From the IMG/VR virus record IMGVR_UViG_3300031994_000025, positions 1-64,000 of that record: a DNA stretch of 64,000 nucleotides; one strand, 5' to 3'. Shown piece by piece: positions 14,317 to 57,900 of this stretch (positions within the stretch are counted from its first letter, which is position 1; each line of letters starts with the position of its first letter). The DNA comes from a virus. Its lineage: Duplodnaviria > Caudoviricetes. The notes below the pieces were generated by a model that saw only the letters and a program-made list of their open reading frames with translations, made no database searches and was not told the DNA's origin. Both the position numbers and the translations under genes were made by a program.

Positions 14317-15108
14317 TTAAAGTCCGTTCACGATGGGATTATCCAGCAGTTGCATCTCCTTCGGGAAGCGACGCTCGAAGTTCCTATAGAGTTGGCAACC
14401 CTTGCATGGGCGGCTCGCCTGCATCTTGCGGAAGGCTTCCGTCACGCCGTCGCTGACGTGGGCGACCTTCTGACACAGCCACGACTCCGACATGTGGATG
14501 CCTCCGTCGGGGTCGATGAGCGGACGGCAGAACTTGCCGGCCTGTGCCGTCATCGAGAGGAAGTGCTGCATGGAGCGGGCCTGCACGGCTATCAGGTGAC
14601 TGTTGATGCAGGATGGTACATGGTCGCTCTCGCGCACCTCGTCCTGACAGTTCTTTCGGGCACGGCCCAGATCCTGCATAAAGATGGGCGACCCGAAGTC
14701 CGGCCCGCAGCCGATGCTACGGAACTGCTGCTCATGGGCAACCGTCCATTCGTGATCCTGGTAATACTTGGGGTGCGAGTACACCTGCACCTTCAGCCGG
14801 CCTCGCGACTCGCGGATAAGGCGGGACATCTTCAGCCGCTCCTTCTGGTCCTCTATCCATGCGCCGTTGGTGAGGACGGTGACGATAGACTTCTGCGACA
14901 GGCGCAGCAGTTCCTTCACCATCTCCGCCCAGAGCGGATGCTCAGTGGGCTCGCCGCCCGACACGTTGACAATCCAGGGACCGGCCTCGCGGCAGAAGTC
15001 GAGCACCTGTCCGAAGGTCTCTTCGCTCATGTGCCTGCCCTGCGGGTCAGAGTCCTGCAGGCAATGCGGGCACATCATGTGGCATCGGTTTGTAATCTGT
15101 ATCAGCAT
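14317..15108 (-). CDS. radical SAM protein
   Basis: CHMMCPHC (CxxxCxxC), SGGEP, TNG; C-terminal Cys residues. Confidence 0.9.
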   Translation of the reverse strand: MLIQITNRCHMMCPHCLQDSDPQGRHMSEETFGQVLDFCREAGPWIVNVSGGEPTEHPLWAEMVKELLRLSQKSIVTVLTNGAWIEDQKERLKMSRLIRESRGRLKVQVYSHPKYYQDHEWTVAHEQQFRSIGCGPDFGSPIFMQDLGRARKNCQDEVRESDHVPSCINSHLIAVQARSMQHFLSMTAQAGKFCRPLIDPDGGIHMSESWLCQKVAHVSDGVTEAFRKMQASRPCKGCQLYRNFERRFPKEMQLLDNPIVNGL

Positions 15109-19471: not shown

Positions 19472-20135
19472 CTGGGTCTATGGTTTCCATGTTGCTATTG
19501 TCGATGTCCGTTCCCCGTCGTGCCATCATGGCATCTACGCGCTCGTCCACCATCGTGCGCTTCTCGTCGATGTATGCACCGTATTTTTTCAGGATAAGCC
19601 GCGCCTGCTCATCGTTCACGTCCTCCTTCGTGGGGTCAACCTCGCTGGCCACGGTTGTCACCACCGGCGGCAGGAACACCGTCTTGGCCATGTCTATCTG
19701 TTCATTCTCCGGCTTGTCCAGCCCAGCCACCTCATACAGCCGTTTCGAGCCTTTGTCGAGTGCCATCACGTTGTCGGTCTCCAGTCCGATGCGTATCAAC
19801 TTCTCGGCGGCGTGGCGCACCTTCAACTCGTCCTGGCGGCGCGAGCCCGACTGTATGTGGTCGATTACGAAGTCGAACAGCATCTTGTCCTTCTGTGCCG
19901 CCACGGTGACGGCTGCCGCGTCGCTGTAGCTTCCCGTCTGCTTCACCAGTTGGCGCAGCATCTGGTAGGCGTCGAGCATCGGGTCCTTAATCCAAACCCA
20001 GTACACATGTGCCACGCGGGCCAGCCGGTCCTTATGCTCTCGTCGCATATCGAGGTCCTTGATGGGCACTCCGCTCTGGAAGTGCAGCAGTGCCCCGGAC
20101 ATCAGCGATTGCGACATTCCTGTTTCTCTTGCCAT
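19464..20135 (-). CDS. probable terminase small subunit
   Basis: Overlaps the terL start; helical, 223 aa; call is positional. Confidence 0.5.
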   Translation of the reverse strand: MARETGMSQSLMSGALLHFQSGVPIKDLDMRREHKDRLARVAHVYWVWIKDPMLDAYQMLRQLVKQTGSYSDAAAVTVAAQKDKMLFDFVIDHIQSGSRRQDELKVRHAAEKLIRIGLETDNVMALDKGSKRLYEVAGLDKPENEQIDMAKTVFLPPVVTTVASEVDPTKEDVNDEQARLILKKYGAYIDEKRTMVDERVDAMMARRGTDIDNSNMETIDPDE

Positions 20136-20138
20136 AGC

Positions 20139-20876
20139 CTATATCATTCTATATTCCGTCTTGGCATCAAAACTCGGACAATCCTTGATCCACTCACTTG
20201 GCTCTATCGTGCCGTTGCCGTTCCTGTCGGGCGAGAAGTCGCGGTGTCCCTGTATCTTTGCATAAGGGTAGAATCTGCGCAGGGCCATGAGCAGACTGAG
20301 CAGTGCAGCCTTCTGTGCCTTGGTGCGCGTGTCCTTCGCCTTCAGTCTGTTGTAGGGTACGCCCGGACGGTTCTCCAGACCGCCGACATACGAGATACCT
20401 ATCGAGTTGGAGTTATAGCCGCTGACGTGCGCCCCCGCCACATCCACGTCGCGTCCCAGGTGTACCCGCCCGTCGAGCGTCACCACATAGTGATAGCCGA
20501 TATCGCTCCACCCCTGCGCCTTGTGGACGGCGCGTATCTGTTCCACGGTCATCACCTGCCTCTCGCGGGTTGCCGTACAATGCACGGCGATGTAGTCGAT
20601 ACGTCGGCGCGATTTCTTCAGTACGATGCCGTTAGGCCCCTCTATCGTCGATGCCTTTGCCGATGGTGTCACCGCCTGCGCCGTCGCCTGCAGCCCCATC
20701 TTCGCCAACGTCTTCACGCCCACGATGCCGTCGGCTGTCAGTCCGTGAGCCGCCTGCCAGCGGCGCACACATTCGGTCGTCACTGCGCCCCAGATACCGT
20801 CAGGGTAAGCCCCCACCACCTTCTGTATCTGTTTCACTATCGCTCCCTTCGAGCCTTGTCTGTAAGTCGTTGCCAT
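20139..20876 (-). CDS. endolysin: PG-binding domain plus N-acetylmuramoyl-L-alanine amidase
   Basis: DGIWG/ADGIVG..T PG_binding repeats; VHCTA, IGYHY, GAH, GHRD, KDCP (T7-type amidase). Confidence 0.93.
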   Translation of the reverse strand: MATTYRQGSKGAIVKQIQKVVGAYPDGIWGAVTTECVRRWQAAHGLTADGIVGVKTLAKMGLQATAQAVTPSAKASTIEGPNGIVLKKSRRRIDYIAVHCTATRERQVMTVEQIRAVHKAQGWSDIGYHYVVTLDGRVHLGRDVDVAGAHVSGYNSNSIGISYVGGLENRPGVPYNRLKAKDTRTKAQKAALLSLLMALRRFYPYAKIQGHRDFSPDRNGNGTIEPSEWIKDCPSFDAKTEYRMI

Positions 20877-21029
20877 AGTCTCGTTTTCGTTTTTGTGTTT
20901 ATGTTGTTCTACCTATTATATATAATGAGCATCCAAAAGACAAGGGCAGGAGGCTACAGAGAATGAAAGAAAAAGATACCGACGAAAAATTTTTCTGCCA
21001 AAATGCTTGCACGGTTCAGAAATTATGCT

Positions 21030-21235
21030 TATCTTTGCAACGTCAAAAATCATTCAGGCGGCACGAAGTGAGCCGCCGACGAAGCGGCATTTTTTGTGCC
21101 CGTACCGCTGAGGTACATCTTAGAAAAGAAAATTCGACCACGCCGGGTGGGGTATCGGACAACGACCCCAAAGGTCTTCGCCTGAATGAACCTTGACAGC
21201 CCGTAGCGTGGTTTTTAATTGTCAAAAAATTCAGG
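21030..21235 (+). ncRNA. c4-like antisense cassette
   Basis: TATCTTTG 21030-21037; target 21042-21060; terminator 21072-21095; antisense 21179-21197 inside stem 21137-21212; second target 21220-21235. Confidence 0.7.
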
Positions 21236-21239
21236 TATT

Positions 21240-21707
21240 ATGAAACGAATCAAAACCCCGCAGTCGCAGGGACGCGACTACAAGCAGATGCTGAAGGACT
21301 ACTTCGGCAAGTTCCTCTATGGCCTTCAGGTGGAGCAAGACGGAGGCCGCGTGCTGGTGCAAATCGTCTATTACGACTTCAAGCACATCAGCACCGTGCG
21401 CCGCGAACTGGCACAGATGATGCCGGAGGTGGAATTTACAAAACTGAAGCGCGACTTCACTGAGGATGCCGAATTATGGGCCCTGCGCCAACTCTATAAC
21501 GGAGAGCGCGAAGACAGCAAGAACACTCCGATCATCTACGTGCAGCGGGGCGACGCCCTTGTCAAGTCGTCGCTGCGCAACATCGCCCGCTCAGAACTGA
21601 GCCAACTCGAAATCGAAGACGACGAAATCACTTACCCAGACAACAGCCTGTTGCACTGCTTCCGCAAGTTCAGCGACAATCAGTTGGAGGAAAACTCATG
21701 GGATTAA
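21240..21707 (+). CDS. hypothetical protein X (copy 1)
   Basis: Protein identical to 38707..39174. Confidence 0.85.
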   Translation: MKRIKTPQSQGRDYKQMLKDYFGKFLYGLQVEQDGGRVLVQIVYYDFKHISTVRRELAQMMPEVEFTKLKRDFTEDAELWALRQLYNGEREDSKNTPIIYVQRGDALVKSSLRNIARSELSQLEIEDDEITYPDNSLLHCFRKFSDNQLEENSWD

Positions 21708-21724
21708 TAAAGGAGGACTGACGT

Positions 21725-22165
21725 ATGAAACTAATCAAGATATATAAGTGGAAAATCTTCGGCTGGTGCGTGTTGGTCAGCCGGAAGAACATCCGGTACT
21801 TCCCCTCCTCGCGCCACGACTCCGTGACGGCTCGCACCATGCACAACCTGCGCAATCAGCGATACAACAAGCATAAGGGCTGCTGCGAGTTGTGCGGCGA
21901 GCAATACCCCAAGGAGTCGATGCAGATGCACCACGTGCTACCCTACGCCATCTTCCCACGACTCATCCGCAAGAAGTGGAACCTCATGATGCTCTGCCCC
22001 CGCTGCCATTTCCTCGTCCACCACGACATACCCATGCAGATGAATTTGATGCAGCGCATGGCCTACCGGCACGGTGTCAATTTGGAACAAGGTTATCACC
22101 GCTCCTCCGTCGGATTCTGGAACAAGAAGCAGGAGATCAGAGAAGCAATGAAGAAAGAACAATAA
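21725..22165 (+). CDS. HNH endonuclease
   Basis: CELC...MHHVLP...NLMMLCPRCH...H. Confidence 0.88.
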   Translation: MKLIKIYKWKIFGWCVLVSRKNIRYFPSSRHDSVTARTMHNLRNQRYNKHKGCCELCGEQYPKESMQMHHVLPYAIFPRLIRKKWNLMMLCPRCHFLVHHDIPMQMNLMQRMAYRHGVNLEQGYHRSSVGFWNKKQEIREAMKKEQ

Positions 22166-22179
22166 ACAACGAAACGCTT

Positions 22180-23583
22180 ATGCTACGCGCTTACAAATAC
22201 CGCATCTATCCCACCGACGAGCAAAAAGTGATGCTCGCCAAGACCTTCGGCTGCTGCCGGTATGTGTATAACTGGGCACTGGAGATGAGGGAGACGCTGT
22301 ATTGGAAACACCATACCAGCGTGTCGGAGTACGACATGAACGCGCTGGTGCGTAGTGAACTGCGAGAACATGCACCGTGGCTGACGGAGGTGAGTTCAAA
22401 GGCTATCGAGTTCACCATGGCCGACCTCTACGACGGCTATGACAACTACTTTGAAGGCAGGGCAGAGAAGCCTGTCAAGCGACGCAAGCATGACCGCCAG
22501 CACTACCACACGCGGGGCAGCATCAAGGTGAACTTCAAGCGCGGACTGCTCACCATCCCTGGAATCAAAGACATCCCGTGCTTGTTCCACCGCCGCTTCA
22601 ATACCAAGGAATGCAAAATCAAGCAGGTGGGCATAGAGCTGTTGAAGTCGGGTGTCTATCATGCCAGCATCCTTGTGGACGATGGAAAGCCCGTGCCCAC
22701 GAAAGCACTCATCGACCCCGACAAGACCATCGGCATAGACACAGGGCTGAAGCACTACGTGGTGACGAGCGACGGCCTGACCGACGAGCCAATGCACTAC
22801 GGCAAGGAGCAGAAGCGCAAGATGAAACTCCTGCAGCGAAGACTGAGCAAGAAGGAGATTGGCAGCCGCCAGTTCCGGGTGCTGAAGCGGCGCATAGCCC
22901 GGCTGCATCAGCACATTGCCAACAAGCGCCGTGACCATATACACAAGCTGACACACTATCTCGCCTACGAGAACCAAGCGACGACGATCTGTGTGGAGGA
23001 CTTGAACGTGAAGGGAATGGTGAAGAACAAACACCTGGCCTACGACCTGCAGGATGCCAGCATCGGCGAGTTCTACCGTCAGCTGGAGTACAAATGCAAG
23101 TGGGCAGGGAAGAACTACATCAAGATTGACCGCTTTGCACCGTCGTCAAAGACGTGCAGCCACTGCGGTTATGTCTATCGGCAGCTGACATTGAAGGACA
23201 GGGAGTGGACGTGCCCCGTGTGCGGCACCCACCACGACCGCGACTTCAATGCAGCCGTGAACATCAAACACTTTGGTCTGAGTGAAAATAAGACTGTCCC
23301 ATTGGTACGATGGGCCAAGCCTGTGGAGCAATCCCTGATGGACGACCGTTCTCCCGCTTCGGCGGCAGGACCTAAGAAGTCATGTTGTTGTGGTTCCACC
23401 CGACGGGTTCGGGAGGATAATCAGCAGCCACCATTGCGAAACCGCAAGACGAGTTCAAGCGGTCGAAACAGGAAAAGTGAAGGGCAAAGGTGCTCAAACG
23501 GAGCGCCCGACACCCCGATGCCTCAGTTTTTAAAGTCGAAACCAACTACAAGCCGCACAACCTCAGAGGCTTCCGGCTTATAG
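22180..23583 (+). CDS. tnpB: TnpB-family RNA-guided endonuclease (Cas12-like), 467 aa
   Basis: AYKYRIYP HTH start; RuvC GIDTG, VEDL and DRDFNAA all intact; CSHC/CPVC zinc finger; long tail overlapping the omegaRNA region. Confidence 0.93.
   Translation: MLRAYKYRIYPTDEQKVMLAKTFGCCRYVYNWALEMRETLYWKHHTSVSEYDMNALVRSELREHAPWLTEVSSKAIEFTMADLYDGYDNYFEGRAEKPVKRRKHDRQHYHTRGSIKVNFKRGLLTIPGIKDIPCLFHRRFNTKECKIKQVGIELLKSGVYHASILVDDGKPVPTKALIDPDKTIGIDTGLKHYVVTSDGLTDEPMHYGKEQKRKMKLLQRRLSKKEIGSRQFRVLKRRIARLHQHIANKRRDHIHKLTHYLAYENQATTICVEDLNVKGMVKNKHLAYDLQDASIGEFYRQLEYKCKWAGKNYIKIDRFAPSSKTCSHCGYVYRQLTLKDREWTCPVCGTHHDRDFNAAVNIKHFGLSENKTVPLVRWAKPVEQSLMDDRSPASAAGPKKSCCCGSTRRVREDNQQPPLRNRKTSSSGRNRKSEGQRCSNGAPDTPMPQFLKSKPTTSRTTSEASGL
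23290..23583 (+). ncRNA. putative omegaRNA/tracrRNA scaffold containing an anti-repeat (23519-23546)
   Basis: Lies in the 3' end of tnpB; anti-repeat pairs 22/28 (18 Watson-Crick, 4 GU) with the repeat; hairpin CTACAAGCCG/CGGCTTATAG; 5' boundary approximate. Confidence 0.6.
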
Positions 23584-23675
23584 GTTGGAAGTGGCTCTAA
23601 AAATGAAGGTAGTAACAACCTGTTTGAAAATTACCCCCCGTTGGAAGTGGCTCTAAAAATGAAGGTAGTAACAAC
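23584..23675 (+). CRISPR. CRISPR mini-array: two identical 36-bp repeats and one 20-bp spacer
   Basis: GTTGGAAGTGGCTCTAAAAATGAAGGTAGTAACAAC at 23584-23619 and 23640-23675; spacer CTGTTTGAAAATTACCCCCC. Confidence 0.85.
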
Positions 23676-24112
23676 TAGTAGTCCTTGTCCGCCCGCTCAT
23701 GCTCGCAGTGGTTCGATGCCCCGATAGTCTTGAAAGTGGAAGCCGAGCCTCCTTTCCAGTCGCGTGCCATAGTCTATTCATTCATAGCGTTAGCCTTCTC
23801 GCGATAATAATTACGCTCCTCAGTGATAGCATTCACGAGGTCGATCATTGCACGCAGTGCTTCTTGATAAGCCTTCTCCGTATTCCTGCGGAGTCTTTCT
23901 TCGTCTGTCATATTGCTTCGCCTTTTGCAGCGCGATTGTATCGCGCCATCGTCGTAAGTATTCGCAGCGGCCCATGCCGAGGATAACATAAGGCGGCAGG
24001 AGCCGCTGCGGTAATCACACAAAGTATAAGTTTCTCGTCACGGTTTTAGAGACCGTCGAGCCTTTGTGGGGATGGGATACAGGCCCGATAAGACCTGCGA
24101 AGCCCATCCCCG

Positions 24113-24763
24113 TTACTTTCGCGAGAAGGCAGGATTGTAATCTCTGATCTCGCCCGTCACCGCGTCTATAAACAGCACGTCGTCCACATCGCCGAAAGTC
24201 CACTGAGGGTTACAATCCTTCGGGCCGACAGGAAGGCGCAGAATGATAAAGTTGCAGTCCTTGGGGAGAATACCGTTATACTCTTTAAGTCTCATCAGCG
24301 CCTGCTCGGCAGAGAGCTTAATCGGCTGTTCGCTCATGTCGGCATCCTCAATCCACACATCGTTAATAGGGTATGGAATCTGCACACCGTACTTCACGTG
24401 CGAGTTGATGTACTGCACCATCGGCCCCTTCACGCTGTCCCAATAGAAAAACACATCGTTCACAGCCACCACATGCAGGTCGTCAATATTCTCAGCGGTC
24501 ACCGTGTCATTCAGAATCACGCGGCTGTTGCGCCACTGATACTCCTTGCCGCCAGTCAGCGAAGCCATCGTCTGCCTGTGCAGCGCCTGGATATGGCCGA
24601 CACCCGCCGTGAAGTCCTGCACGACGCCATCATAATCATGATACACCACCACGGGGTCATCAATCATAGCCGTCTCTCTCTTGCAGCCGTTACAGCTGCA
24701 CACGAGGGCCATCACTGCCAACAGCAGCACCCCCATCAACTTTCCGAAAAAATCCTTTTTCAT
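24113..24763 (-). CDS. lipoprotein
   Basis: Signal peptide with LVCSC lipobox; PepSY-like FIDAVTGEI end. Confidence 0.7.
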   Translation of the reverse strand: MKKDFFGKLMGVLLLAVMALVCSCNGCKRETAMIDDPVVVYHDYDGVVQDFTAGVGHIQALHRQTMASLTGGKEYQWRNSRVILNDTVTAENIDDLHVVAVNDVFFYWDSVKGPMVQYINSHVKYGVQIPYPINDVWIEDADMSEQPIKLSAEQALMRLKEYNGILPKDCNFIILRLPVGPKDCNPQWTFGDVDDVLFIDAVTGEIRDYNPAFSRK

Positions 24764-24869
24764 CGTCGTTAAAATTTTTGTTTGTTAATACTATGGGCTT
24801 CAAGCCCGGGTTATATCTTCCGTTTTGTTGGTGAATAAATTCGTATAATTCGTTTAATTCGTAGTCCCT

Positions 24870-31553: not shown

Positions 31554-32453
31554 ATGGAAAACTATCAAGAGCGCTGGGCGAAATGCCTGCAGATGATCCG
31601 CGAATGGCTGCCCAAGGATGTGAAGGTCATCCCGCAGGACGATGCGGAGTGGGTGTATCAGACGTGGTTCGCGCCCATCACCTTCGAGTCGTTCGACCCC
31701 ACCACGGGGGAACTTGTGCTGCGCGTGCCCGACCATCACGTCTGTGAATACATCGAGCACTACCGTATGCCGCTCTGGTCGTGGGTGCTGAAGCAGGCCT
31801 TCAGTCCGAACGTCCGGCTGGGCTACCGCATCCAGCAGCCGTCTCCCGACCATCCGGAGGGCTATATCTCCGACGTGTCGCCTGAGCGTCCACGGTTCTC
31901 CATACCCGATGCCCGGCAACAACTGGAGAGTGACATGCGCCGCGTCGTCGGCGACGGCTTCCGGTGGATGCCCGCCTACGACAAAGTGGCGGCGTGGCTG
32001 ACCGACAACGAGGGTAGGGGACTGTTGTGTCTGGGAACGCCCGGCATGGGCAAGTCAACCATCTGCTGCGACGTGCTGCCGCCCATCCTCGGCGGTCCTG
32101 ACTGGCGACGGAAAATACCCGTCGTACAGGCTGGAGAACTGCGAAGCCGTCTCGACGAACTGAAGCGTGCCCGCTGTGTGGTCATCGACGATCTGGGCAA
32201 GGACGACCGCAAGCACTACGGCAACCAGGACAACTCCTTCTACGAGCTCTGCGAGGCGTCGGTGCATGGAGGCCCGCTGCTCATCATCACCACCAACCTC
32301 TCCACCACCACCATCGCGCCACAGTTCCCGACGGCCGTCCTCTATCCCGATAGCATACAGCACCGCTACGGCGACGATGTGCTCAGCCGACTGGCAGCCT
32401 GCACCACTGTAGCCCGCTTCGAGGGAGCAAACTTCTGGAAGTCCAAAAACTAA
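31554..32453 (+). CDS. DnaA N-terminal domain plus AAA+ ATPase (helicase-loader-like)
   Basis: W..CL..IR...YQTWFAPI DnaA_N; GTPGMGKS; IDDLG; TTNL; RYG..VLSRL. Confidence 0.8.
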   Translation: MENYQERWAKCLQMIREWLPKDVKVIPQDDAEWVYQTWFAPITFESFDPTTGELVLRVPDHHVCEYIEHYRMPLWSWVLKQAFSPNVRLGYRIQQPSPDHPEGYISDVSPERPRFSIPDARQQLESDMRRVVGDGFRWMPAYDKVAAWLTDNEGRGLLCLGTPGMGKSTICCDVLPPILGGPDWRRKIPVVQAGELRSRLDELKRARCVVIDDLGKDDRKHYGNQDNSFYELCEASVHGGPLLIITTNLSTTTIAPQFPTAVLYPDSIQHRYGDDVLSRLAACTTVARFEGANFWKSKN

Positions 32454-38464: not shown

Positions 38465-38702
38465 TATCTTTGCCAACGCTAACAAGATGATAGTAACTTC
38501 TATCCGTCGGGGTGCGCGTCAGACGCTCAGCAGAAATGCCGGGCATTTTTTATGCCCAGTATGCAACCGATAAATACGGCTGCCTTCTCGTAAGATTAAA
38601 ACGGCTCCTTCGGAGAAGTCATCATCTTGTTAGCAACGGGAAGTGCAGCCGTTTCTCTGTCTCCGCGCCAGTGCGGATCGCTGGCATGCTAACAAGATGA
38701 TG
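38465..38702 (+). ncRNA. c4-like antisense cassette
   Basis: TATCTTTG 38465-38472; GCTAACAAGATGAT at 38478 and 38688; perfect complement CATCATCTTGTTAGCA at 38620-38635 inside stem ACGGCTGC/GCAGCCGT. Confidence 0.72.
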
Positions 38703-43775: not shown

Positions 43776-43994
43776 ATGAAGACTTTCCTGAAAATGATTG
43801 TGGCCGCTATCGTGGCCGTAGGTATGGCGTGTGTGCTGATTATGCACGGCGCGAGTGACAACCTTGTAATCGTGACGCTGTTTGCGACGGGTATCGCCGT
43901 GAGTGCGCTGCTGGGCGTGTATGACATGCCCGCTGAGCGCACGAAACACACGAGCCTGAAGGACGGGGCGCGCTCCTACGACCAGGCAGCGTGA
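43776..43994 (+). CDS. small two-TM membrane protein
   Basis: Two hydrophobic helices; ends in QAA. Confidence 0.65.
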   Translation: MKTFLKMIVAAIVAVGMACVLIMHGASDNLVIVTLFATGIAVSALLGVYDMPAERTKHTSLKDGARSYDQAA

Positions 43995-44239: not shown

Positions 44240-44443
44240 ATGAAAATCAAGAAGATGGCCAGCGCCGCCAAGAAGAGCGCACGTATCGTGACTATGACCG
44301 CAGCCGTGGCTGCCAGTATGAACACCACTATGACCGCCGAGCAGAAGGCCGCTATGGAGTGCGCCTTTGCGGACATGGCGGAGGAGTACGGGCCCAAGGC
44401 TATCATCGTGGACCTGCACCCGTTCCACGGGTTTATCGCATAA
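44240..44443 (+). CDS. small hypothetical protein
   Basis: ORF in operon. Confidence 0.6.
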   Translation: MKIKKMASAAKKSARIVTMTAAVAASMNTTMTAEQKAAMECAFADMAEEYGPKAIIVDLHPFHGFIA

Positions 44444-54949: not shown

Positions 54950-57900
54950 ATGAGTAAGTTACAACGGCTACGTGACAATATCGCGGCAATAGAGTATGCG
55001 CTGACTGGGAACGGCGACGCATCGGTGATGGATAAATACACGGGCTTCGGGGGGATGACGTTCGTGCTGAACCCGCTGGATAAGCCATGGAGCAAGAGCG
55101 AACAGATGTATGTGGACGACACCATCGAACTGCATACGCTGCTGAGAGACGCAAGCAATAGCGATAAGGAATATCAGGCATGGGTGGAGAGCCTGAAGGC
55201 GAGCACGCTGACGGCTTATTATACGCCGGAAGTATTGGTGGAAGCCATTATCGGTGCTATCTACGGCGAGGAGAAACATCAGGGCAGGATCAACTACAGC
55301 ACTCACAAGAAGGGCTGGATAAAGCCGAAGACGTTTCTTGACCCTGCGGCTGGCATGGGAGTATTTATGAGAGCCGTGTGCAGTCAGAACATTGCACTGA
55401 CGCAGTTCGGCTATTCGATGACGGCTTTTGAGAAGGACTTGCTGACGGGTATTTTTCTGAATCGCTGGGCTGGTCCACGCACTAATGTTCATGTCGCTGG
55501 CTTCGAGACTATCCCTGCATCTGAGCTGGGCAAGTATGACCTGGTGAGCACGAATGTTCCCTTTGGCGACATCCGCGTGTTTGATCCTGACTATACGAAC
55601 TCGAAGAGCCAGGTGCGCAGGGACGCGGCCCGCATGATCCACCGCTACTATGTGCTGAAAGGACTTGACTGTCTGCGAGAGGGTGGGGTGCTGGCGTATA
55701 TCATCACGAGCAACTACCTGAACCGCGACGGCGAGCAGATAGGTGAGGCACTGAAGCAGGCACGGCTCATCGGAGCGTATCGGTTGGCGAACAACCTGTT
55801 CAAGGAGAGCGGAACGGAGGTGGGCACCGACCTCTTAGTGATGCAGAAGGACTCGAAGCGAGGTGAACTGACGGAGGAAGAGACAATGCTGCTGACGCAA
55901 TATGAGGACGGCGGGTGCCCGACGAATATGTACTTCGACATGTGGCCGGAGCGAGTGATTGCTACGGCGTGGACGGTTGATACGGATGCCTATGGAAAGC
56001 GGGCATTTGTGTATCAGCACCGCGACGGTGTGCAGGGGATTGCACATCAGCTGGGCGAGGTGCTGTCGAAGGACCTGACAGAGAAGCTGAAGGCGACGGA
56101 GGGGGAAGATAGTGACCCCACCCCTGACCCCTCCCCTACAGGGGCGGGGAGCGGCTACCGCAAGAGCGAGCGCAAGGAGGAACGCAAGAGCGAGAAGCAG
56201 GAACAAGGCGGACAGTGGCAGGAGATAGACGCCAGAGCTATGTATTTGGTGGCCATCAACTACCACTATCAGGAGCTTTACAATAGCGAGGCTGCGAAGA
56301 TGGAGGAGAATGTGGATGCCCGCAAGCGGCTGAACGGGGCGTATGATAACTTCAGGGAGAAGTTCGGTCCGCTGAACAAATCCGAAAACTTGAAAGCCGC
56401 GAAGAAGCTGAAACTGAAGGAGCTGCTGACGCTGGAGATACTGGAGGACGGCGAGTGGCGCAAGGCTGACATCTTCAAGAAGCCGGTGGCTTTCTCGACG
56501 GACGAGATGCACAGCGTGACGGACGCTCACGAGGCGCTGGCACAGTCGCTCAATGACTACGGCAAGCCCGACGTGCGCTATATGGCTGCACTGACGGGGA
56601 AGAGCGAGGAAGAGATATGCGACGAGCTGGACGGGGAGATATACTATAACCCCCTGAGCGAGGAGTGGGAGATTAAGGCGCGGTTCGTCAGCGGGAATGT
56701 GATTGAGAAGATTGACGAGATTAAGCGGAAGTACCAGAACCTCGGTGGAACAGAGGCAGAGGAAGCGCGCGGAACGGCAGACGTGGCGAAACGGGGCGAC
56801 AGGACGGAGGCTTATATCCGCCGCTCGCTTGATGCGCTGAAGAAGTCGGTCCCTGAGCCTATCCCATTCGATGACCTGGACTTCAACCTGGGTGAGCGAT
56901 GGGTGGATACGAAGATTTACGAGGACTTTGCCTCAGAGTTCTTCTCGATGGAGGGCGACGAGTGGGGCAGTAAGGTGGAGGTGACGGTGAAGTATGACCG
57001 CAACCTGGACCAGTATGCCTGCGACAGCGACCGTGGCAACGAGAAAATATATACGCAGTATGCCGTGAGCAGCGAGGCGAGCCAGTCGCTCGACGGTATG
57101 GATTTGCTGGTGCATGCACTGCAGAACTCCTGCCCAAAGATGATGAAGTATCGCCGTGACGAGATGGGGCGCAAGATTAAGACCGCCAGCGGTAAGAGCT
57201 ATGAGAAGGACGAGGACCCGGAGGCTACGCAGAAGGCTAACACGCTCATCGAGGAAATCCGACAGGGCTATCAGGACTGGCTGCTCAGACAGCCCAAGGA
57301 GTTGCGCGACGGACTGGCTGATAAATACAACCGACTGTTCAACTGCCATGTGAAGCCGCAGTTCGACGGTTCGCACCAACGATTTCCCGGCATCGACTGG
57401 GCAGGGCTGGAGGCGAAGTACGAAATACCGCAGCCCGTGTATAAGGACGGCAAGAAGGTGAGCGGCGGCCTGTATAAGAGCCAGGAGGACTGTATCTGGA
57501 TGCTGACGATGCAGGGCGGCGGCATCTGCGACCACGAAGTAGGCAGCGGCAAGACGCTCATCATGTGTCTCGCCGCCCACGAGATGAAGCGACTGGGCTT
57601 CTGCCACAAGCCGATGATCATCGGACTGAAGGCTAACGTGGCTGCCATTGCCGAGACGTATATGACGGCTTACCCCAAGGCCCGCGTGCTCTACGCTAAG
57701 CACGCCGACTACTCAGGCAAGGAGCGCGAGAACTTCTTCAACCGCATGAAGAACAACGACTGGGACGTGGTGATCATGTCGCACGACCAGTTCGGCTTTA
57801 TCCCGCAGTCGGACGAGGTACAGGCCGACGTGATACGTGAGGAGCTGAACCACCTGAACGAGAGCCTGAGCGCACTGTATGGCTCGTGGGACAGCGTGTC

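Follow-up and report, generated by a model that had tools for sequence, protein, structure and literature searches.

The locus described here, in which a phage-borne tnpB gene is followed without a gap by a miniature repeat array, raises the question of whether that array furnishes guides to the TnpB protein, as was argued in the original prediction, where the locus was regarded as a candidate intermediate between TnpB and Cas12. It lies in the first 64 kb (the window, that is, the whole stretch of DNA analysed) of a 140,421-bp IMG/VR virus record (G000) of a rumen phage, with a CheckV completeness of 100 %. On the basis of the anatomy of the locus, the conservation of its layout, covariation, spacer diversity and turnover, phage targets and a flank motif, the locus is best read, with a probability of roughly 85 %, as a phage-borne, TnpB-derived mini CRISPR system, a transposon-CRISPR intermediate resembling those known as TranC.

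The tnpB gene, its repeat array and the origin of the repeat

The features on which this reading depends are the following, with positions in the window.

22180-23583, + strand: tnpB open reading frame (ORF) of 467 amino acids, stop codon TAG at 23581-23583
22180-23280, + strand: TnpB core, residues 1-367; the final ~100 codons read through the guide-RNA scaffold
23290-23583, + strand: putative omegaRNA-derived scaffold, resembling a tracrRNA (trans-activating CRISPR RNA), in the 3' end of tnpB; presumed limits, the 5' one approximate
23519-23546, + strand: anti-repeat, which supplies the 5' strand to the extended terminal stem, recognised by pairing with the repeat and covariation in 13 lineages
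23547-23583, + strand: inner hairpin or loop from the anti-repeat to repeat 1, ending with the tnpB stop codon TAG; absent from the sister omegaRNAs
23584-23619, + strand: repeat 1, 36 nucleotides (nt), beginning at the base after the tnpB stop
23620-23639, + strand: spacer 1, 20 nt
23640-23675, + strand: repeat 2, identical to repeat 1
23676-23705, + strand: terminal guide position, i.e. the flank after the last repeat, preceded here by AAC of the repeat

The tnpB product incorporates the Pfam domains HTH_OrfB_IS605, OrfB_IS605 and Cas12f1-like_TNB, as well as two CxxC pairs (zinc ribbon), and the intact D-E-D RuvC triad that had been predicted is present as D187, E273 and D355 in the motifs GID, VED and DRD. 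Over its full length (residues 3-366), the protein can be aligned with ISDra2 TnpB (8H1J/8EXA; E = 5e-52), the best match in PDB. The layout downstream, in which the stop codon at 23581-23583 directly abuts a 36-bp repeat, a 20-bp spacer and an identical repeat, could be confirmed. The repeats take the form GTTGGAAGT...GGTAGTNACAAC, and shuffled sequences give an expectation of 0 for two identical 36-nt repeats. The first 26 nt of repeat 1 pair with the anti-repeat, while the last 10 nt (TAGTAACAAC) match the 3' tail that precedes the guide in omegaRNAs. Of the 28 positions of 23519-23546, 22 pair with the repeat, through 18 Watson-Crick and four GU pairs, in exact agreement with the original prediction, and the long hairpin proposed for this region is supported by the fold of 23510-23625 (-33.4 kcal/mol; z = -3.0). 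The scaffold DNA, for which a fold was also computed, is conserved with the relatives L003, L004 and L005 past the protein core. No omegaRNA or CRISPR-DR family was matched in Rfam at E values of up to 1.

Among 80 TnpB relatives sampled from IMG/VR (at most 69 % identity) none carries an array, and the exact repeat and repeat-junction patterns were found in IMG/VR only in the window's own record. The first impression drawn from this sample, that the repeat is unique to this phage, was overturned by closer relatives from ENA, JGI and Logan; a search of a large protein collection yielded dozens of closer TnpB relatives. Twelve further lineages combine a TnpB 60-95 % identical to that of the window with an array of two to six repeats at the same junction, all of them on rumen-type phage contigs. 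Homologues with the same kind of repeat and different spacers, as the original prediction would lead one to expect, therefore exist. The lineages are as follows.

L083: TnpB 95 % identical, four repeats
L084: TnpB 84 % identical, four repeats
L184: TnpB 74 % identical, array at the junction
L166: TnpB 73 % identical, six repeats
L168: TnpB 69 % identical, four repeats
L186: TnpB 63 % identical, array at the junction
L176: TnpB 62 % identical, three repeats
L187: TnpB 61 % identical, array cut by the contig end
L179: TnpB 60 % identical, array at the junction
L086, L087 and L088: three JGI rumen-type contigs, found via the repeat junction

In every fetched relative with the extended tail the array begins at the base after the tnpB stop. 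The spacers are mostly 29-30 nt long across the lineages, and as four of about 27 measure 20-24 nt, the short spacer of the window is not unique. The arrays of L084, L087 and L088 share the same repeat and contain different spacers, with spacer change outpacing that of the protein and the repeat. Furthermore, the L084 array equals that of L086 with one spacer added at the tnpB-proximal end, a difference which looks like polarised spacer acquisition.

Covariation was evaluated on an alignment of the tail and repeat 1 of 13 lineages, the consensus fold of which retains three helices between anti-repeat and repeat. In the anti-repeat/repeat helix 88.8 % of the cells are paired, as opposed to 33-56.5 % when the partner is slid by one to three columns, and changes on both sides occur in 14 cells, against 7.1 in shuffled alignments. 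Not one of 500 shuffles attained the covariation score of the actual alignment, which bears out the expectation that the anti-repeat covaries with the repeat.

The origin of the repeat is apparent from close relatives in which the array is missing. In L085 (82 % identical) and L004 (63 %) the omegaRNA ends in the ordinary single-guide manner, the terminal hairpin being short and the array absent. Such single-guide omegaRNAs end in GGTAGTAACAC or GGTAGCAGCAAC, which are homologous to the 3' end of the window repeat. In L004 the scaffold closes with a short hairpin followed by a tail (together CCTTGAATTTCAAGG-TAGCAGCAAC), and the locus ends in CCTTGAATTTCAAGGTAGCAGCAAC; the corresponding L085 sequences are CCTAACATTTAGG-TAGTAACAC and GATGCCTAACATTTAGGTAGTAACAC. 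The window counterpart consists of GATGCCT, then the anti-repeat, the inner hairpin and the stop codon, and then GAAGG-TAGTAACAAC. Given that the 3' end of the repeat is homologous to the boundary of scaffold and guide in L085 and L004, the last omegaRNA stem has the repeat in place of its 3' strand, which upholds the earlier proposal of such a replacement. To judge from the sequences, the repeat is the 3' strand of a much extended last omegaRNA stem together with a 10-nt pre-guide tail. The presumed likeness of the repeat end to a GGTAGTTCAC-type right end was set aside, and the omegaRNA ends of the relatives were compared directly instead. In a tree of the protein core a single, well-supported clade of 79 rows takes in every extended-tail form, with single-guide forms interleaved among them, the verified array-less L085 being nested beside the subclade of the window.

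Targets of the guides and the flanking motif

Both guides of the window match a single gene in other phages. Spacer 1 is matched at 20/20 positions in three IMG/VR contigs (L205, L206 and L209), with GCG as the 5' flank, and at 19/20 in G003 (the record of L004) and in L208. In every case a phrog_799 DNA methyltransferase gene is hit on its sense strand, within the peptide context FLEGK..LFENYPP. Directly downstream of repeat 2, the next 30 nt are matched at 30/30 in L209, again with a 5' flank of GCG, and at 29/30 in L205; this terminal guide is the antisense of the first codons of the same methyltransferase gene, the full version of which was read in L203. Guides aimed at competing elements had been suggested, and in agreement with this both match the methyltransferase gene of sibling phages. 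No match of either guide to the phage's own genome was found outside the array itself. What remains of the gene in the window directly follows the array.

23676-23781, - strand: methyltransferase remnant, first ~35 codons only, homologous to G003 31909-32015 and L209 7241-7343

Contig L209 represents a near-sibling at this locus, with matches to window positions 20000-20140, 23676-23778 and 24126-24793 at 95 %, 90 % and 88 %, respectively. The intervening window sequence (20141-23675), comprising small ORFs, the HNH gene, tnpB and the array, replaces 1.4 kb in L209 that includes the body of the methyltransferase gene. Taken together, the guide matches and the L209 comparison indicate that both guides point at the allele displaced by the cassette. 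Spacer and flank are oppositely oriented with respect to the methyltransferase gene, and the spacer was thus captured; an origin as a deletion remnant is ruled out by the same observation. A tandem duplication was likewise ruled out, the sequence past repeat 2 being unlike the spacer. The protospacer of spacer 1 ends in a poly-C run of seven to nine C, depending on the contig (L205 6888-6915, L206, L208 and L209), and in two of these contigs the reading frame meets a stop soon after the run; the targeted methyltransferase may thus vary by frameshift.

The spacers of the relatives match sibling phage genomes, that of the window phage included. The window phage is itself a target at 44333-44361, 43947-43966, 56936-56965, 57044-57072, 14665-14693 and 38651-38680, sites matched at 22/29 to 29/29 by spacers (S) of L088, L084, L086 and L176. 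The individual matches in G000, and the one gene hit by several spacers, are the following.

44333-44361: L088_S2, 29/29
57044-57072: L084_S3, 28/29, in the DarB-like gene
56936-56965: L084_S2 (27/30) and L086_S1 (26/30), in the DarB-like gene
14665-14693: L084_S1, 23/29, in a radical-SAM-like gene
38651-38680: L176_S1, 25-28/30, also matching L083 and L169
54896-60094: DarB-like antirestriction gene, 1732 amino acids

For L168_S1, L087_S1 and L166_S2 there was no exact 20-nt match in IMG/VR. The protospacers lie on the sense strand in four cases and on the antisense strand in two, and the presence of spacers against both coding strands fits DNA targeting and not RNA targeting.

A possible protospacer-adjacent motif (PAM) was read, on the spacer-sense strand, from the three bases located 5' of the protospacer for eight distinct non-self protospacers.

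Window spacer 1: GCG
Window terminal guide: GCG or GCA
L088_S2: GCG
L084_S3: TCG
L084_S1: TCG
L084_S2 / L086_S1: TCA
L176_S1: GCC
L184_S2: TCG or TCA

The consensus of these flanks is K-C-R, with K at -3 and C at -2 in 8/8 protospacers and R at -1 in 7/8. The carriers' own alleles have AGT (L084, L086), TTG (L083) or TTC (L179) at this position, and AAC precedes every spacer in the arrays. This suggests, but does not prove, that K-C-R is a candidate 5' PAM, located on the same side as in type V systems and TnpB. The serine codon 5' of one protospacer is TCA in the window (56933-56935) and AGT in the carriers L084 (6999-7001) and L086 (reverse complement, before 3965). Both triplets encode serine in frame with the DarB-like gene (56936-54896=2040), and a synonymous multi-base switch from TCA to AGT would remove K-C-R, a possible case of PAM escape. 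L005, which does not have the spacer, also has AGT at the same serine codon.

Genome setting of the cassette

Immediately upstream of tnpB are two features which tie the gene to its phage surroundings.

21725-22165, + strand: HNH endonuclease gene (PF01844, E = 1e-6; PHROG HNH families), directly upstream of tnpB
22168-22182, + strand: leader AACGAAACGCTTATG, a phage-type translation leader that takes in the tnpB ATG

The HNH gene, which also adjoins tnpB in L083, L084 and L179, stops at 22165 and the tnpB ATG lies at 22180; the predicted gap of 14 bp is thus correct and leaves no space for the left end of an insertion sequence (IS). The leader motif AACGAAACGNNTATG occurs at seven sites in the window (5248-60864, at most one mismatch) against 0.07 expected, and the claim that tnpB has the same leader as other phage genes accordingly holds. 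The motif precedes several phage genes including tnpB, and may represent a phage-specific translation-initiation or processing signal. The absence of an adjacent tnpA can be extended to the entire complete 140,421-bp genome, in which no Y1 transposase (TnpA) was found. Cas1 (PF01867) was likewise not found in the complete phage genome, while control genomes gave matches, and no cas genes were called at any related locus.

The neighbouring genes are phage-like with a Bacteroidota flavour (HU-HIG, DUF4248, DUF5053, DarB-like and HNH). No TnpB relative above 47 % identity occurs among the GTDB representative genomes, and hence this search yielded no host or prophage; the hosts are presumed to be Prevotella. 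An ORF of 162 amino acids without an assigned function (21219-21707) is conserved at 62-69 % in L083, L168, L186 and L187, one or two genes upstream of tnpB, which probably reflects synteny among sibling phages, although a role in the cassette is possible. A second tnpB lies outside the window (G000:C1:133709-134854; 34 % identical; ORF of 381 amino acids, or an open frame of 406 amino acids by search). It is the sole paralogue in the genome, and no repeat array follows it. The 62 %-identical lineage also has a second tnpB (436 amino acids; L176 4954-6264 / L177 3432-4742), which follows the array at a distance of about 1 kb downstream.

Proposed mechanism, rival explanations and known systems

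From these data we infer, as follows, which RNAs are formed, how cleavage takes place and what a mixed infection leads to. The tnpB gene would be expressed as an ordinary phage gene, with the 3' part of its transcript folding into an omegaRNA-type scaffold, the last stem of which would arise by pairing of the anti-repeat (23519-23546) with nt 1-26 of repeat 1. The remaining 10 nt of the repeat (UAGUAACAAC) would connect this stem to the guide, in the manner of the sister TnpBs with their single-guide omegaRNAs. Spacer 1 would be presented in cis, like a natural single-guide RNA, whereas repeat 2 with the guide that follows it would find its anti-repeat in a further scaffold molecule, or pair after processing. 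TnpB, with its intact RuvC site, would then cut double-stranded DNA carrying 5' K-C-R beside the match, the guides being aimed at the methyltransferase gene which is intact in sibling phages and truncated here by the cassette. In a mixed infection, the cassette would probably destroy or convert the rival allele, leading to exclusion or to homing-like copying by recombinational repair.

A bolder and rather doubtful extension is that the cassette may be an RNA-guided homing element with several guides, acting among phages as a natural gene drive. The replaced allele and genes flanking the cassette sites of siblings would both be hit, a cut in a co-infecting rival would force copying of the cassette by recombination, and new guides would require no adaptation genes of the element itself, being written via a host Cas1-Cas2 acting on the omegaRNA-derived repeat or by a recombination-based route. 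Of about ten mapped protospacers, six lie at most 2.5 kb from a cassette site in some sibling phage, a proximity which would fit homing. For the writing of 29-30-nt spacers in a phage without Cas1, host Cas1-Cas2 supplied in trans is the obvious candidate, and is compatible with a TnpB-derived mini CRISPR.

Several observations weigh against this mini CRISPR interpretation. The pseudoknot expected of TnpB and Cas12 guide RNAs was not convincingly found; a candidate pairing of GTTGTT (about 23385) with the ACAAC end of the repeat was rejected, not being conserved in L168 or L179. The window has one internal spacer only, of 20 nt instead of 29-30 nt, and there are no adaptation genes, leaving spacer entry unexplained. 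Two relatives' spacers match their own HNH genes next to tnpB at 28/29 and 21/24 positions (L083 2865-2892, flank TTG; the HNH_3 of L179, at about 2176-2199 in L183, flank TTC), which would be tolerable only if the flank motif is required. The motif itself is derived from eight protospacers, and its position was picked after viewing the data.

Virus-borne mini-arrays that depend on host Cas proteins exist, and the absence of Cas1 from the phage genome would suit an array of host type serving a host Cas effector, e.g. a Bacteroidota type II, V or VI system, with the adjoining tnpB making no use of it. The 36-nt GTTG...ACAAC repeat with 30-nt spacers may also resemble those of Bacteroidota CRISPR arrays, though Cas13b repeat strings were not found in the literature. 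A search for the repeat gave 0/401 genomes of the order reached via L157, but these ~1-Mb genomes are not Bacteroidales and hence represent the wrong group. Such an array would, however, have no reason to start at the base after the tnpB stop in 13 lineages, to covary with an anti-repeat inside tnpB, or to share its 3' end with sister omegaRNAs. Moreover, the flank motif is on the 5' side, as for TnpB and Cas12, spacers against both coding strands are incompatible with an effector that targets RNA, and the Rfam CRISPR-DR families gave no match, which together render this explanation very improbable.

Just as little credence can be given to a chance duplication of the right end in an ordinary, non-autonomous IS200/IS605 tnpB element, with a junk spacer and only the classical flank guide of consequence. 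There are indeed only two repeats and a short 20-nt spacer, and the terminal guide follows classical TnpB logic, in that the guide is the flank and the target the uninterrupted site. A junk spacer is nevertheless difficult to reconcile with the 20/20 match in a conserved gene carried by other phages, where the flank is GCG as it is for the terminal guide, or with relatives that have up to six repeats and unrelated spacers. The sequence past repeat 2 is not a copy of the spacer, and a left end has no space, TnpA is absent from the genome and there is no second copy, the paralogue being 34 % identical. Domesticated TnpB repressors are also known (PMC10705468), and the matches of two relatives' spacers to their own neighbouring HNH genes could point to a nuclease-independent, TldR-like regulator whose guides repress phage or host genes without cutting. 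Such a regulator is scarcely to be expected, however, where both the RuvC triad and the zinc ribbon have been retained intact and an active nuclease, ISDra2 TnpB, can be aligned with the protein over its full length, and the best matches of the window guides are in other phages, with no match in the own genome beyond the array.

With regard to known systems, the proposed place of the locus between TnpB and Cas12 is supported, but its novelty was overrated, as this kind of locus was already published in 2025-2026 and has precedents at the bench (TranC; phage Cas12r). TranC was reportedly described by Jin et al. (Cell 2025, 10.1016/j.cell.2025.09.004). In PMC13565253, TranC systems are presented as transposon-CRISPR intermediates with repeated origins in IS605 and IS607 TnpB, through a split of the right-end RNA (see also 10.1101/2025.09.28.678669). 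The TranC clades have 32-38-nt repeats, medians of about five repeats (range 3-20) and no linked adaptation genes, and they include the phage-borne, ultra-compact CauTranC9, the array of which targets phages (10.64898/2026.03.27.714800). Like these, the window has a TnpB-sized RuvC effector that groups among ordinary TnpBs (an ORF of 467 amino acids, where TranC effectors span about 300-600), an adjacent small array without cas1 or cas2 that is conserved in 13 lineages (two to six repeats, within 32-38 nt, and varying spacers) and an omegaRNA, or right-end element RNA (reRNA), apparently split into an anti-repeat scaffold and repeat-spacer units, as suggested by the 22/28 pairing, the fold (z = -3) and the covariation (0/500 shuffles). 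For the cleavage of double-stranded DNA guided by both CRISPR RNA and reRNA that is expected of TranC, the evidence is indirect, namely phage protospacers on both strands with a 5' K-C-R flank. A Caudoviricetes genome and phage-matching spacers are shared with CauTranC9. Among the published TranC clades are 3, 9, 11 and 20; LaTranC (PDB 9JFQ/9JFO; partial alignment, E about 1e-28) is a distant match of the window protein, which is much closer to ISDra2 TnpB. The locus further differs from TranC in that the anti-repeat is joined to repeat 1 by a loop holding the tnpB stop codon, and in that the targets are sibling phage alleles, including the gene replaced by the cassette.

In the Thermus Lalka phages tnpB-like genes likewise stand beside short arrays without cas1/cas2 (PMC11437467), and their Cas12r has shown interference at the bench, targeting other mobile elements (Trofimova et al., 10.64898/2026.04.20.719267). 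The two systems thus have in common a phage TnpB-like effector, a short array and spacers directed at mobile elements, but the host phylum of Cas12r differs, its 29-nt repeat is unrelated, its spacers are 32-33 nt long and its targets are host integrative elements instead of sibling phages. The resemblance to ISDra2 TnpB (8H1J, 8EXA) extends to domain architecture, size, catalytic residues and a scaffold overlapping the 3' end of the gene. As in IS200/IS605 TnpB, the guide is placed on the 3' side of the scaffold, which is conserved with L004 and L085, and the guide in terminal position is derived from the flank and matches the uninterrupted site. Mobile IS200/IS605 elements have two ends, TnpA either present or supplied in trans, and several copies, whereas the window has no TnpA, left end or extra copies, its terminal stem is extended with the 3' strand repeated and captured spacers in between, and its flank motif is apparently 3 nt (K-C-R) in place of a 5-nt target-adjacent motif. 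Cas12f (PDB 7C7L, 7L48, 8J12) is likewise derived from TnpB and miniature in size, and has a 5' PAM as well as a tracrRNA pairing with the repeat, but its similarity to the window TnpB is weak (E of 1e-4 to 1e-7, C-terminal half only). The close relationship with Cas12f/Cas14 and the expanded N-terminal half that define type V-F are missing, REC and WED not being expanded, and V-F loci are normally accompanied by adaptation genes; with no Cas1 in the complete genome, the locus is not an autonomous type V CRISPR-Cas system.

The locus is set apart from these systems by its very close single-guide sisters, by an anti-repeat and repeat joined through a loop with the stop codon at the junction, by natural targets that include the displaced allele, and by a candidate 3-nt PAM that can be read from the data. 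The compact effector, with a core of about 370 amino acids and an apparently simple PAM, is of practical interest. As array and single-guide forms occur at 82 % protein identity, the exact change in the RNA is visible, namely the extension of the last stem and the repetition of its 3' strand, and both states can be compared side by side for the origin of type V systems from TnpB, as framed by the work on TranC.

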